The notes below the pieces were generated by a model. The model ran no database searches. It saw only the letters and a program-made list of their open reading frames with translations, and had not been told where the DNA came from. Position numbers and translations under genes: made by a program. A DNA stretch of 64,000 bases, from assembly GCF_006345805.1 (NCBI RefSeq), contig NC_042998.1, positions 21,266,001 to 21,330,000 on the forward strand. The letters run 5' to 3'. Of this stretch, positions 6,927-56,316 are shown one piece after another (the stretch's first letter is position 1; the number at the start of each line of letters is the position of its first letter). Source of the stretch: Octopus sinensis (Eukaryota).

Positions 6927-7337
6927 ATTAAATTAGAGATAAAACCACTATTAGGCAAATCATACAATGAAAAACTTAAGCCAATACATAAGATTAATTA
7001 ATTTATATTATTTAAATATATATCAAAATTATTAAAAAAGATAATTAATATAACACTACGATCGTTTCATGGCTGTTCAATTCTTAAAAATTTCGAGTTA
7101 CAGTCATTCTTCAGGTGGTTTACATTTGGCGAGGTTTAATCAATGAACCACCTGAAGAATGACTGTAACTCGAAAATTTTAAGAATTGAACAGCCATGAA
7201 ACGATCGTAGTATTATATTATTATCTTTTTTAATAATTTTGATATATATTTAAATAATACAAATTAATTATCTTATGTATTGGCTTAAGTTTTTCATTGT
7301 ATGATTTGCCTAATAGTGGTTTTATCTCTAATTTAAT
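6927..7337. repeat. Fold-back inverted repeat (about 195-bp arms) with a hammerhead motif in each arm
   Basis: About 6927-7120 is the reverse complement of about 7146-7337 with scattered mismatches; (TA)n lies on both sides of the element. A homologous truncated single copy lies at about 43460-43655. Confidence 0.9.
7054..7117 (-). ncRNA. Minimal type-I hammerhead ribozyme motif (mirror copy on + strand at 7149-7212)
   Basis: cac-CTGAAGA-atgactgt...acagccat-GAAA-cgatcg-TA-gtg: intact core, stem II, palindromic stem III and 3-bp stem I. The + copy has only a 2-bp stem I. Confidence 0.75.
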
Positions 7338-7499
7338 AATATATATATATATATATATATCTATATATATATATATATATATATATATATATATATATAT
7401 ATATTTGTGTGTGTGTATGTGTGAGTGTGTATACATGCATACGTACATACACACGCACACGCATACAGACACACACACATAAAATTCAATATTCAGGAT

Positions 7500-9030
7500 C
7501 TGAAATTTATTGGTGATGCGTAAACACGTGCTGTCTCAAACAGATCTATGGACAACAACCTCTACCGCATTTAGTATGTCATACACAGAGTGGGTAAAGA
7601 AACTGGCATGGGTGGGTCCCTTATCGATTTGGATAGGTGAAATGTTTTCGATACGGCCGACCACATATATTTGGCGGCCATTCTTACAGCGGTCGGTTTC
7701 GGTTCCGTTCTCCGTGGCTGAATTGCAGCAATGTACAGAGACATATACTAGGGAGTTCGGGTGACTTTTTGGAACCATTCAGCACCACGTACTCGGTACG
7801 TGAAGGATTCCCTTTCTTGCTTCTTCTCTCTTTTACTCTTTTACTTGTTTCAGTCATTTGACTGCGGCCATGCTGGAGCACCGCCTTTCGTCGAGTAAAT
7901 CGACCCCGGGACTTATTCTTTGTAAGCCCAGTACTTATTCTATCGGTCTCTTTTTGCCGAACCGCTAAGTTACGGGGGACGTAAACACACCAGCATCGGT
8001 TGTCAAGCAATGCTAAGGGGACAAACACAGACACACAAACGCACACACACACACACACACACACCACACACACAACACACACACACACACACACACACAC
8101 ACACACACACACACACATATATATATATATATATATATACAAATATACGACGGGCCTCTTTCAGTTTCCGTCTACCAAATCCACTCACAAGGCATTGGTC
8201 GGTCCGGGGCTATAGCAGAAGACACTTGCCCAAGATGCCACGCAGTGGGACTGAACCCGGAACCATGTGGTTGGTTAGAAAGCTACTTACCACACAGCCA
8301 CTCCTGCGCCTTCTGTATGTATTTACTCTAGAACTACAACTGCAGAGATTAGGGCATCCCACACAAACGAGGAGGCGGGTGAACCATATCGGCATATGCA
8401 GATGACGTTACCGTCATGTGGAACCAGGTACACAGACCTGGTCGGCACTACTCCAGAAGAATGCGAAGCTCTGACAGGAGCAAAAGTTATTCAAGAGAAG
8501 TCAGTGGCCCTGCCACTCGGCACCTGGAGAGGTAGGTCCATGCCGTCAATAATATCGTGGGACGCTAGACAGAGTTCCCGGTTAAATTGCTTTGGATTTT
8601 GTTTCGTCTAGATCTCCGGGTGCAGAAGAACTAGGACAAGGTGATGAGTAGGGTGGCCAATTTCATCCAGAAATGGGCCGAGAGAAAGCTGTCTCTGAAG
8701 GGTCGGGCAGGGGTACCGATCGCATACATCGCCTCCGTCATATAATACTTTATGACCGTCGTGCCTTGCCTCAGTTTGCAACAAACTAAACTGCAGTGCA
8801 TACTCTTCGGTTTACTGTGAAAGGGAGGCGTTCCACTGGTCAGGTGCTCCATTTGTAATCAACCCGCTGAATGAAGAACTTGACATGGCGTGGCTGCTGA
8901 TGCACAGACATGCGCTCAAGCTCCGACATACCTAGCGCTTCATTAACGGTAAGCAGGAGTGGTGGCCATTTGTCACACACGATCTTCTGCCGCTCGGTTT
9001 AGAGTTTTGCTTCAAGTTCCACAAAACCGT
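7500..9030 (+). mobile_element. Decayed Tx1/L1-like LINE RT fragment interrupted by a SINE
   Basis: Reads ...LIDLDR*NVFDTADHIYLAAILTAVGFG...SVREGFP, then the SINE, then LLYVFTLELQL...YADDVT (RT domain relics with stops). Confidence 0.65.
7822..8310 (-). mobile_element. tRNA-derived SINE family A (most abundant; internal (TA)n(TG)n tract)
   Basis: Head GGCGCAGGAGTGGCTGTGTGGTAAG...GGGTTCAGTCCC and tail GGCGGTGCTCCAGCATGGCCGCAGTCAAATGACTGAAACAAGTAAAAGAG. Other copies at about 737-890(+), 9047-9463(-), 17238-17678(-), 20149-20516(-), 22703-22865 plus 23880-24103(+), 31918-32335(+), 39560-39932(-), 43760-43978(+), 48112-48512(+), 50765-50980(-), 52196-52400(-) and 53558-53722(-). Confidence 0.9.
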
Positions 9031-9589
9031 TTTCTTGTATTTGTATACTCTTTTACTCTTTTACTTCTTTTAGTCATTTGACTGCGGCCATGCTGGAGCA
9101 CCGCCTTTAGTCGAGCAAATCGACCCCAGGACTTATTCTTTGTAAGCCTAGTACTTATTCTATCGGTCTCTTTTGCCAAACCGTTAAGTGACGGGGATGT
9201 AAACACACCAGCATTGATTGTCAAGCGACGTTGGGGGAGAAACACAGACACACACACATATACACACACATAATACATATATATATACATACATATATAC
9301 GACGGGCTTCTTTTAGTTTCCACCTACCAAATCCACTCACAAGGCTTTGGTCGGCCCGAGGCTATAGTAGAAGACACTTGCCCAAGGTGTCACGCAGTGG
9401 GACTGAACCCTGAACCATGTGGTTGGTAAGCAAACTACTTATCACACAGCCACTCCTGCGCCTATACGACGTAGTAGTAGTAGTAGTAGTAGTAGTAGTA
9501 GTAGTAGTAGTAGTAGTAGTAGTAGTAGTAGTAGTAGATCCAGTTTGACCTTCCTTACAAAACTACCACATTTGTACAGGCCAATCGTC

Positions 9590-10500
9590 ATGAAATTACT
9601 AAAAGCCGGATGCTAAACCTCGTTGAAAATCCCGTGAGGTGTAAGAAGATTAATTCAATCTGGTAGAAGAGAAAAATATTTGCTATTGATTTCATGACTG
9701 ATACCCAGGCTGAACAACTTGAGGGAAGTGTAGCAATAATTGTTACCTCAATTGGCTGAATAATTGTCTGATAGTTCGGAACAGAAACCTCTGCATGGCC
9801 CATATCAAATAAGCTGCTGTTGACCAGAAGTTATCTTTAGCTACAAACCTCAAGCCAAAGGCTGAGAGCAAAGTTTGCTTCTTAGCTACTCAAGATCAAA
9901 TCTTATTGAACTGGAACTACCAAATCAATGTGGACAAAAAATGGAGTTGATCCAAAGTGCCGATTCTGTAATGATGAGATTGAAAAAGTGGATCACTTAA
10001 TGTCTGGATGTAAAGTTTTAGCATTAGTAGAGAATAAATCAAGACATTGACAGAGTTGGCTAATATCTACGCTGGTTATTATATTGCCATTTAAAAAATA
10101 AAACTGTCGACAAGTGGTATGGGAGGAAATAAAACGGTTCTTTGCTACTTTCCTGTTCATACAGACACAACAATCAAAGCTAATGAACCGAATATTGTTG
10201 GAAAAGACCAAAATGATAAAGTTTGTTTAATGATTGACGTGAGTATCCCCTGTGATCCTAATATTGAGGCAAAAGTATTTGACAAGCTCAGAAAATATAA
10301 AGATTTGTCCATTGATAATAATAAAAAAAATCTGGTATCTCAATGCGGTTACAATACCAGTGATTGTAGCAGTACTAGAAATGATCGAACAAGGAACTGA
10401 AACTCATGGGAGAAAGTTCCCTGGCTTACTGTCCCTGCAAGAAGAGTAAGATACGTCATAAGTATTGAACAGAGCATTGCCGCTGTATGAACGATAACTT
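9590..10500 (+). mobile_element. Decayed R4/Dong-type LINE 3' part (zinc knuckle plus REL endonuclease)
   Basis: ATQDQ..., CRFC..E...HLMSGC and VHTDTTIKANEPNIV...LMIDVSIP...KLRKYKDL match the PD..D REL endonuclease region. Confidence 0.8.
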
Positions 10501-54974: not shown

Positions 54975-55353
54975 TCTATATAAACGGCAGTTTGTCTGTG
55001 TGTGTTTCTGTGTGTCTGTTTGGTTGTAACCTCACTCTGACCACGGCTTTCAACCGATTCTGATGAAACTTGACACACACATAGCCCAATGTCATAATTC
55101 AAAACTAACACAGCGAAAAGTTTGAAAAGTTCCCCCAGTTCTGAAAAAAAATCAATAAATTCGACATGGGGTCGAGAATCAGAAACACAAACCACAGACT
55201 GTCTAGGGGACGCAACTCCACCTTTTTAACTCTCAAAAAAAAATTACCATCGTTTTTTTCCCATTTTTTTGCTATATTTTGGCTATAACTATCTAAAAAT
55301 GCTTTATAGTTATTTCCCTTACAAACCCGAGCAACGCCGGGCGATACTGCTAG
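54975..55353 (+). mobile_element. Non-autonomous Helitron-like element
   Basis: A|TCTATATAAACGGCAG...CCCGAGCAACGCCGGGCGATACTGCTAG|T. Confidence 0.82.
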
Positions 55354-55993
55354 TATATATATATATACAAGGGCAAACAATTCACAAGAAAAATAAATAA
55401 CGGAAAATGAAAAATTAATTTGCGGAGATATTAATTCTGTTATTATCCAATGTAACCATTTTACAAAACGATAATAACAGAATCAATAATATAGGCGATT
55501 GCAGACGCAAAAAAGGAATTATATACCTGAAGGATTAAAATTAATCAAAGGACATACTAAGTATATATATATAGTGGCATTCCGTCGCTTACGACGACGA
55601 GGATTCCAGGTGATCCGATCAACGGAACAGCTTACTCGTGAAATTAACGTGCAAGTAGCTGAGCATTCCACAGACACGTTTACCCATAACGTAGTTCTCG
55701 GGGAGATTCAGCATGACACAGAATGTGACAAGGCTGGCCCTTTGAAATACAGGCACAACAGAAACAGGAAGTAAGAGTGAGAGAAAGTTGTGGTGAAAGA
55801 GTACAGCATGGTTCGTCACCATCCCCTGCCGGAGCCTCAGGTGTTTTCGCGCAATAAACACTCAGAGCGGTCTTGGAATCGAAACCGCGATCCTATGACC
55901 ACAAGCCCGCTGCCCTAACCACTGGGCTATTGCGCCTCCAAGTATATATATATATATATATATATATATATATATTTGTAAAAAATGAAGTTC

Positions 55994-56174
55994 GAAACTC
56001 AGAGTTTTATCTTGACTACCGAGTAATGTAACATATTGTATATATATATATATATAAGTTATTCTAAGTTTTATATATATATATATAATATATATAAAAC
56101 TTAGAATAACTTATATATATATATATATACAATATGTTACATTACTCGGTAGTCAAGATAAAACTCTGAGTTTC
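55994..56174. repeat. Palindrome centred on a (TA)n tract
   Basis: GAAACTCAGAGTTTTATCTTGACTACCGAG...CTCGGTAGTCAAGATAAAACTCTGAGTTTC. Confidence 0.9.
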
Positions 56175-56265
56175 AGATGCCGAAGTGGAAATCCACAACA
56201 CCATCTACATATATAATATATATAATATATATATATATATATATATATATTTATTATATAGAAGG

Positions 56266-56316
56266 AGCTTCTACAGGACTAGAACTGTTTCATTCAAGAG
56301 AAATCTTCAGGAAGCT
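56266..56316 (-). ncRNA. Minimal type-I hammerhead ribozyme motif
   Basis: agcttc-CTGAAGA-tttctcttgaat-GAAA-cag..ctg-TA-gaagct: 6-bp stem I, weak stem II, closed stem III. Confidence 0.72.

Follow-up and report, generated by a model that had tools for sequence, protein, structure and literature searches.

Pfam analysis of the window, i.e., the whole 64-kb stretch of octopus DNA analysed, covered 471/471 non-low-complexity frames of at least 45 amino acids and showed the presence of CD225 exons, Tc1/mariner remnants and three reverse transcriptase regions (1782-2516, 14781-15173 and 57095-58687). The third of these is preceded by an AP-type endonuclease, and all three are read as LINEs and not as Penelope-like elements (PLEs). 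The window also contains six full hammerhead ribozyme loci (E1–E6), five of which had been named in an earlier note on this DNA; the sixth full locus, E6, and two sites with 5'-truncated halves are added here. Locus coordinates of the hammerheads start at the core and end with the cleavage dinucleotide.

6840..7338: E1, head-to-head palindromic insert with (TA)n at both ends; 189/192 aligned bases of the arms identical; left (minus) arm with an additional tail of ~88 nt
7057..7114, minus strand: left hammerhead of E1, strict match; stem III palindrome ACGATCGT, 3-bp stem I
7152..7209, plus strand: right hammerhead of E1, not a descriptor match
33693..34348: E2, head-to-head palindromic insert; arms 267/272 identical; left arm tail of ~79 nt, ending in a short (TA)n
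33912..33959, minus strand: left hammerhead of E2, strict match; stem III ATCGGTCCGAT
34161..34208, plus strand: right hammerhead of E2, strict match
43454..43655, minus strand: older copy of the E1 family, 5'-truncated at GAAA, 154/172 identical to the E1 tail; stem III is the alternative palindrome ACAATTGT; 3' end shared with the long arm of E1
47885..47971, minus strand: E6, missed in the earlier note; core to cut site 47953-47908, strict match; stem III ATCGCGAT, cut triplet AUC, 5-bp stem I with a distal 5-bp extension
49741..49966, plus strand: E3, solo; hammerhead 49747-49824(+), relaxed match; stem II degraded, stem III ACGATCGT; 142-nt tail running to (TA)n
52864..53487: E4, almost perfect palindrome, its arms separated by 1 nt at 53102, with (TA)n at both ends; 237/237 aligned bases of the arms identical, one indel; right arm with an additional tail of ~147 nt
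53007-52934, minus strand, and 53197-53270, plus strand: hammerheads of E4, found by descriptor scan; stem III ACACGTGT
55994..56175: half motif in two copies forming a tail-to-tail palindrome, a candidate only; arms 87/87 identical; 3' half of a likely hammerhead (GAAA, near-palindromic stem III, TT), the right arm also having a stem II of 5 bp; 5' core absent
56260..56316, minus strand: E5, solo; hammerhead 56310-56272(-), relaxed match; 6-bp stem I, 3-bp stem II, stem III closable in the monomer; (TA)n begins ~12-22 nt past the cut site

The window was scanned with strict and relaxed versions of a type-I hammerhead descriptor, with 300 local dinucleotide shuffles as the control. The strict version gave 6 matches in 64 kb versus 0 across 300/300 shuffles, and the relaxed version gave 8 matches versus a shuffle mean of 0.023 (maximum 1); the comparison with shuffled DNA that the earlier note had proposed thus places the motif frequency far above chance. 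The type-I core CUGANGA / GAAA / UH was found together with three helices, helix I being open, and each of the five loci named earlier was confirmed by the scan and by inspection as stem I-CTGAnGA-stem II-GAAA-stem III-TH-stem I. The plus-strand copy of E1 fails both descriptors because one substitution breaks stem I, and E3 and E5 pass the relaxed one only, because of a U-U at the base of stem II. A candidate at 19872 (GAAA-CAGCTG-TA), without a proper 5' core or stem I, was excluded; such half motifs number 10 in the window versus 2.2 per shuffle.

Rfam analysis of the whole window, the only run in which E1, E3 and E4 were scanned, gave no hammerhead among the 150 of 223 matches listed, which are mostly microsatellites and hairpin microRNAs. 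All microRNA matches among these 150 of 223 are below gathering, and the palindromes were rejected as microRNA genes. Separate searches with E2 and E5 at E ≤ 10 gave no hammerhead match. E6 matches Hammerhead_HH9 with 26.1 bits (gathering 52; E 6.9e-5 on 141 nt), and no match listed in these runs reaches the gathering score of the Rfam hammerhead model. Pattern scans for relatives with their flanks gave 17 viral loci without convincing stems and without a BLAST match to the window, and one metagenome match, from which the 3' half is absent; the 3' half of E2 has 0 matches in the genome and viral scans.

The six families have different yet complementary stems around a conserved core. As had been claimed, the loci are unrelated in sequence, the lone cross-match among seven elements being an 18-nt core stretch of E1 and E3, and stem III is palindromic in E1 and E3, which have the same palindrome, in E2 and in E4; the palindrome of E5 is interrupted. 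The designation 'minimal hammerhead' does not hold in the strict sense, a scan for a stem III of 0-4 nt having given 0 matches. Helix III of the E1 family covaries (CGATCG to CAATTG), and variants of the E2 family are present at 34170 as well as at 34191, which pair with each other in stem II (the phase of the variants not being given); the core of this family is free of variants among the 40 of 92 variants listed.

The layout of the inserts was overlooked in the earlier note. E1, E2 and E4 are head-to-head palindromes with an extra tail of 79-147 nt on one arm, ending in (TA)n, so that inverted 5'-truncated copies with a tail at one end are represented in 3/6 full loci. The 5' ends of the paired arms are 0-25 nt apart in all three palindromes. 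The hammerhead lies upstream of the 3' end in E1–E5, with the cut site 12-219 nt ahead of it. On one arm or both, 7/8 independent inserts have a repeat of (TA)4 or longer in the 230 nt that follow the cut site, versus 27% of background positions (binomial ~6e-4, calculated by hand), which corresponds to a preference for AT-rich or (TA)n targets. E6 is an exception to the microsatellite flanks described previously, with no (TA)4 in the 2 kb downstream. Tandem hammerhead copies are absent from the window. Inverted duplications without a full hammerhead are also present, at 49992-52149 and 54680-54843.

Sequencing-run contigs showed that E2 is repeated at high copy number in each of two organisms, with thousands of contigs per DNA run and a summed depth of 1e4-1e6 versus ~26-57 for the unique flank, which is not a copy number. 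Copy number was examined for E2 only; E1 is multicopy by its second copy in the window. Run X12, for which RNA is no more than a guess, was left out as evidence on expression. Minority alleles are common to both arms of E2 at the mirrored positions 33858/34262, 33826/34294 and 33869/34251, its right junction is spanned by a 158-nt contig of an independent run (X2 record 23), and its centre contains short templated re-copies. A joint leading from 34054 back to 33714 (back-joint of 341) was found in contigs of 3/4 runs, namely, X1 and X2 (organism A) and X3 (organism B), with 1-2 contigs each, the letters between the two sides being unread. These joints suggest head-to-tail, retrozyme-like units of at least ~370 nt (~0.4 kb).

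Six loci per 64 kb correspond to ~1 per 10.7 kb, in agreement with the density of about 1 per 10 kb given earlier, but the loci are clustered, with 4/6 in 47.9-56.3 kb, and the density is unremarkable in comparison with O. vulgaris, in which PLEs of 190 families make up 6.83% of the genome (PMC13282606 supplement). The elements described here occupy 3.9% of the window. As to the proposed location inside or next to genes, only the truncated half copy at 43.6 kb is inside one, in an intron of the plus-strand CD225 gene; for both CD225 genes, the stretches separating the coding exons that were mapped contain no full motif, the first short exon being outside the mapping. E6 is located ~2.9 kb downstream of the same plus-strand gene and is antisense to it.

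The loci are genuine type-I hammerhead motifs carried by short repeats, which were most likely inserted by PLE machinery as 5'-truncated, ribozyme-bearing terminal pieces (pLTRs). The pieces represent several families without mutual relationship, and one family or more is likely a short non-coding unit. With respect to the several PLE or retrozyme families postulated earlier, the layout and the presence of several unrelated families are supported, but a link to PLE frames and a non-coding nature of all families are not, the evidence for a short unit coming from E2 only. The head-to-head layout with a tail on one arm is described for PLEs in the available text of PMC3846280 and PMC8557442, and a 2014 paper (PMC4209133) already reported both opposite-strand hammerhead pairs 100-700 bp apart and truncated copies that stand alone.

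In the course of insertion that we infer, a PLE protein would nick an AT-rich or (TA)n site, reverse transcription would begin inside the uncut RNA downstream of the ribozyme (as deduced from PMC11167929), and copying would pass through the hammerhead and halt 0-120 nt beyond it. For E1, E2 and E4, the nascent DNA would then likely fold back and copy itself, which would give a head-to-head palindrome with a tail on one arm. The template RNA was uncut, since the copies retain the sequence that precedes the cut site as well as that which follows it, and the mirrored minority alleles of E2, together with the matched 5' ends of the arms, point to one template. Twin priming from two RNAs is disfavoured by the same shared alleles and matched ends, and would be conceivable in the case of one source locus.

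In cofolding without constraints, the double hammerhead is the minimum for E2 and E3; for E5 and E6, it is at most ~2.5 kcal/mol above the minimum. Helix III is predicted to close only as a dimer in E1, E3, E4 and E6, and with a palindromic helix III, cleavage is predicted to require a dimer of two ribozymes. Paired ribozymes in the window are on opposite strands, so that an active dimer is impossible within one transcript, and the earlier argument of cleavage as dimers is inapplicable to these copies. Being solo or on opposite strands, they are probably inert; an active source would be represented by tandem copies predicted elsewhere in the genome.

A number of observations speak against the PLE reading. 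The predicted dimer leaves the 3-bp stem I of E1 and E4 unformed, folding of single strands gives weak z-scores (-1.9 to +1.1), and the G10.1-C11.1 pair and the extra base after A9 of the published minimal consensus are absent from 5/6 loci, G-C at 10.1-11.1 being present in E4 only. Tail lengths of 79-147 nt contrast with 30-40 nt in print, no target-site duplication is readable because the target is (TA)n, and E6, besides having no (TA)n flank, is solo and without a palindrome. GIY-YIG or PLE-type reverse transcriptase was found in 0 of the 471 frames, and the supposed link to PLE frames is thus absent from the window, as expected because the copies are 5'-truncated. The tails, considered as PLE N-termini, gave weak negative results: E2 has no candidate frames, and none of the 11 candidates in E4 gave a match at E ≤ 10. 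A phmmer search with an E2 frame gave two bacterial repeat proteins, which are spurious.

It is unlikely that the elements are non-LTR retrozymes, i.e., small circular RNAs from tandem arrays inserted independently of PLEs by another reverse transcriptase, for example that of the LINEs in the window. The E2 back-joint, with its implied units of at least ~370 nt, is consistent with such an origin, as mussel retrozyme units are 350-390 bp (available text of PMC7229834), and so is E6, with an extended stem I as in canonical hammerheads and no PLE-type flanks. However, the inserts neither start nor stop at the cut site, their head-to-head arrangement with a tail at (TA)n is typical of PLEs, and tandem copies are missing from the window, with the letters between the sides of the E2 joint unread. 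In a 2026 preprint, animal retrozymes are argued to be non-autonomous PLE derivatives (bioRxiv 10.64898/2026.07.22.740005), so that the PLE and retrozyme readings partly merge.

It is very unlikely that the palindromes are MITEs or foldback DNA elements, that DNA repair produced them by duplicating sequence in inverted form at (TA)n, or that they are fold-back artefacts of assembly, with hammerheads as passengers. The inverted duplications without a full hammerhead, the 100% identity of the arms in E4 and the 56-kb palindrome, and the resemblance of the E2 centre re-copies to end-joining repair would fit such origins, but the same polarity and one-sided tail recur in 3/3 hammerhead palindromes, the arms of E1 and E2 have diverged, the contig of the independent run crosses the right junction of E2, and solo copies are present (E3, E5 and 43.6 kb). 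Recruitment of the ribozymes by the host for regulation of the adjacent CD225/PRRT1-like genes is extremely improbable: the stems of E6 are intact at ~2.9 kb from such a gene and one half copy is intronic, but E6 is antisense, the intronic copy has no 5' core, and these are repeat families whose arms are young and nearly identical and whose helix III requires a dimer. Chance matches in AT-rich, microsatellite-rich DNA, for which the short core, the weak folding z-scores and the chance occurrence of the stem-free pattern in a large collection (the 17 viral loci, without convincing stems by eye) would speak, have a negligible probability, being already refuted by the strict counts and opposed by covariation in the E1 and E2 families and by the match of E6 to HH9.

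Within the PLE reading, one regularity is unexplained: the long arms of E1, E2 and E4, three unrelated families, end 217-219 nt past the ribozyme cut site. No hidden homology was detected among the three tails (z -1.35 to 1.44). The constant distance means that the start of reverse transcription may be set by distance from the ribozyme fold and not by sequence. It is a speculative and rather doubtful suggestion that the Penelope enzyme uses the hammerhead as a reference point for measuring distance, with E2 as a tandem unit in PLE-type inverted form. If true, octopus would provide a many-family test of the purpose of PLE hammerheads and of retrozymes riding PLE machinery.

The analysis extends PLE-type hammerheads to Octopus, for which no description was found in the literature searched; the terms hammerhead and ribozyme do not occur in the O. 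vulgaris repeat paper. As such, the phenomenon dates from publications of 2013-2014 (PMC4209133 and PMC3846280), and novelty would lie in the constant 217-219-nt spacing alone, if it holds genome-wide. Many short perfect palindromes of the octopus genome are thereby explained as retroelement inserts and not microRNA genes. Read-through transcripts would fold into hairpins of ~200-270 bp, 94-99% paired, which may be substrates for editing or silencing. RNA editing is heavy in octopus.

Among known systems, Naiads occur in Octopus and are without canonical hammerheads; six short words from the octopus elements are absent from the supplement text of the Naiad paper. Non-LTR retrozymes, according to the available text of PMC7229834 and bioRxiv 10.64898/2026.07.22.740005, share with the octopus elements a non-coding nature, a type-I hammerhead and units of a few hundred bases, and E2 is likely a head-to-tail unit of ~0.4 kb in read contigs. 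Unlike retrozymes, the copies in the window are inverted rather than direct and form no tandem array. From EN+ PLE insertions with inverted pLTRs, as presented in the available text of PMC3846280 and PMC8557442, the octopus inserts differ in the absence of an ORF between the arms and in tail length (79-147 versus 30-40 nt), and share with them inverted copies, a palindromic junction, a tail on one arm, (TA)n target bias and no readable target-site duplication.

In comparison with the metazoan PLE pLTR hammerheads (PMC4209133), in the searchable supplement text of which Octopus has no entry (file 1 being outside the search), the octopus helix III palindromes are longer (8-11 nt versus 2-4 nt in the minimal form), stem II tends to be long, with as many as 58 nt from core to GAAA, and 5/6 loci have no G10.1-C11.1. 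Common to both are the type-I topology, the CUGANGA/GAAA/UH core, a short helix I, a palindromic helix III predicting dimers, and many unrelated families, mostly solo, with opposite-strand pairs. The nearest variants are those with a small palindromic helix III, namely, Aedes, Drosophila willistoni, Marsupenaeus and Saccoglossus 2 (supplement rows).

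Scanning the window with a type-I hammerhead descriptor (stem I, CTGAnGA, stem II, GAAA, stem III of at least three Watson–Crick pairs, TH, stem I) revealed six strict and eight relaxed matches, whereas 300 shuffles, with microsatellites fixed in place and local dinucleotide content preserved, gave no strict match in any of the 300 and a mean of 0.023 relaxed matches per shuffle. The hammerhead loci are real, and chance as the source of the motifs has a negligible probability. All five loci named in the earlier note, as well as the excess over shuffled sequence that it implied, were confirmed, and a sixth locus, E6, absent from its list, was found.

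6840–7338, hammerhead-bearing locus E1
33693–34348, hammerhead-bearing locus E2
43655–43454, minus strand, 5'-truncated older second member of the E1 family (43.6-kb copy)
47885–47971, hammerhead-bearing locus E6, hammerhead at 47953–47908, minus strand
49741–49966, hammerhead-bearing locus E3
52864–53487, hammerhead-bearing locus E4
56260–56316, hammerhead-bearing locus E5

In the plus-strand copy of E1, stem I is broken, and neither the strict nor the relaxed descriptor is matched; in E3 and E5, stem II has U-U at its base. E6 aligns with Rfam Hammerhead_HH9 at 26.1 bits, under the gathering score of 52, and no hammerhead match was found in the Rfam scan of E2 and E5. Outside the core, the families are unrelated, as had been claimed, with the exception of 18 nt common to E1 and E3. 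The designation 'minimal type-I' was not retained: a window scan for the classic form with a helix III of 0–4 nt found none, and the loci are accordingly grouped with variants having a palindromic helix III, which PMC4209133 (available supplement) lists for mosquito, D. willistoni, shrimp and acorn worm. Immediately to the left of the midpoint of E4 (53085–53102, plus strand), a stem-like GCC-CAT-GGC followed by GAAAC looks like half a hammerhead in antisense, with two mismatches in the 5' core, and is probably due to chance.

Judging from sequence variants, hammerhead structure is conserved, beyond mere presence. The 43.6-kb copy starts exactly at GAAA, and its helix III is changed from CGATCG to CAATTG with the palindrome kept. 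Variants of E2 contigs at 34170 and 34191, which may or may not occur together, affect both partners of one stem II pair, and none of the 40 listed of 92 variants falls in the core. Folding predicts that helix III stays open in the monomers of E1, E3, E4 and E6, with predicted self-pairing of −10 to −14 kcal/mol. In two-copy cofolding without constraints, the double hammerhead is the lowest-energy structure of E2 and E3, and for E5 and E6 it lies within ~2.5 kcal/mol of the minimum; in E1 and E4, stem I, with its 3 bp, remains unformed. Single-strand folding z-scores of the elements are weak.

E1, E2 and E4 are head-to-head palindromes with outward-facing ribozymes, the arms being identical at 189/192, 267/272 and 237/237 positions, respectively. 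In each, one arm is longer: the distance from cut site to long end is 217 nt in E1 (6840–7056), 219 nt in E2 (33693–33911) and 217 nt in E4 (53271–53487), and to the short end ~129, ~140 and ~70 nt. The 43.6-kb copy and the long arm of E1 have an identical end point, so this end is fixed for the E1 family. (TA)n adjoins the long ends of all three palindromes, and seven of eight independent inserts, with the sole exception of E6, have (TA)4 or longer within 230 nt downstream of the cut site, compared to 27% of background positions. The three tails lack detectable homology; the probability of such coincident spacing is 6e-4 under a uniform 60–300 prior, calculated post hoc with n=3, and the spacing is the one point left unexplained.

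The window is AT-rich and dense in microsatellites, and contains other inverted structures. Segments 49992–50541 and 51576–52149 form an inverted duplication of ~576 nt (95% by BLAST, long stretches at 100%, ~1 kb apart), which starts at the (TA)n ending E3, includes microsatellites and a SINE-like repeat but no hammerhead, and is possibly a fold-back copy of host DNA or an assembly feature. The palindrome 55994–56175 is tail-to-tail, of polarity opposite to E1, E2 and E4, with arms identical at 87/87 positions; a likely hammerhead, represented by its 3' half, lies within it, and a 16-nt segment is duplicated between (TA)n runs. An older AT-rich palindrome (54680–54843, 84%) lies between microsatellites and has no hammerhead match. 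A Tc1-like transposon with inverted ends (32428–33689) adjoins, by its right end, (TA)n at the E2 tail.

E2 is a high-copy repeat, present in sequencing runs of several organisms. In each of three DNA-like runs, 9,000–14,000 contigs aligned to a 1.1-kb stretch, including a flanking SINE-like repeat that adds to these counts; summed depth over E2 was 1e4–1e6 compared to ~26–57 in unique flank, a figure that does not translate into a copy number. Three of four runs, from two organisms, contain a joint that leads from 34054 back to 33714 (one or two contigs each, known from its two sides) and is suggestive of units of roughly 0.4 kb arranged head to tail. An open frame of ~48 codons (34196–34348, plus strand), the ATG of which overlaps the cut site, has no protein relatives among those searched.

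The elements are most probably inserts made by the machinery of Penelope-like elements (PLEs). Assignment to PLE or retrozyme families is supported by the PLE-like palindrome, tail and (TA)n layout. No PLE ORF was found among 471 frames of the window, and tail-frame searches for PLE proteins gave empty or spurious matches. The machinery would copy mainly uncut RNA and stop in or just past the ribozyme, and the palindrome would arise by fold-back self-copying, also proposed for PLEs (PMC3846280, available text). This is favoured over two independent primings because the 5' ends of the arms are matched, with a 1-nt spacer in E4, and alleles are shared: both E2 arms carry the family-minority allele at three mirrored positions (56–87% of depth in run X1 differs), so they derive from one template. 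Since paired ribozymes lie on opposite strands, any one transcript contains a single sense-oriented ribozyme, trapped within a long hairpin (94–99% paired), and the window copies are therefore predicted to be inert.

PLE-independent retrozymes, small non-coding hammerhead retroelements, are an unlikely source; they best suit E2 and E6, and the putative E2 unit is of mussel retrozyme size (PMC7229834, available text), but animal retrozymes are in any case argued to be non-autonomous PLEs in the accessible part of a 2026 preprint. Foldback, repair or artefact palindromes are highly improbable; a 158-nt contig of run X2 spans the right junction of E2, so this boundary is not an artefact of the present assembly. 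Recruitment of the ribozymes by the host deserves still less credence, and the claim that some elements lie inside genes holds for the 43.6-kb copy alone.

41062–41376, 44138–44254 and 44807–45022, plus strand, exons of a CD225-domain gene, 95–100% identical to an Octopus sinensis protein
12160–20980, minus strand, CD225 paralogue with exons near 20.9, 13.3 and 12.2 kb

These CD225/PRRT1-like paralogues are divergently oriented, and all but the short first coding exon were mapped. The protein identity of the plus-strand gene places the window in Octopus or a very close relative. A half motif, GAAA-CAGCTG-TA, lies in an intron of the minus-strand gene (19840–19890); its 5' core is imperfect, and it is possibly a decayed seventh hammerhead family.

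The density, called high in the earlier note, is ordinary: the elements occupy 3.9% of the window, in line with the 6.83% of PLEs, in 190 families, of O. vulgaris (PMC13282606, available supplement). In the literature searched, hammerheads in octopus PLEs are undescribed, save for a 'half core' remark on an Octopus Naiad, which supplementary files outside the search may change. Opposite-strand hammerhead pairs are already known: the available text of PMC4209133 describes pairs 100–700 bp apart, predominance of solo motifs, and low, dimer-dependent cleavage of PLE-type hammerheads. According to the available text of PMC11167929, an anole PLE cleaves both strands of AT-rich DNA in vitro and initiates reverse transcription internally, at two sites bracketing the tail; its template is mainly uncut RNA, and its hammerhead cleaves only with protein and is dispensable for insertion. 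The window copies, which retain sequence to either side of the cut site and break off in or just past the ribozyme, fit this system. Head-to-head inverted pLTRs (ribozyme-bearing terminal repeats) with palindromic junctions and an optional one-arm tail are described in the available part of PMC3846280, and the same picture with a (TA)n bias in that of PMC8557442; E1, E2 and E4 are similar to these PLE inserts in head-to-head arms, one-sided tail and (TA)n.
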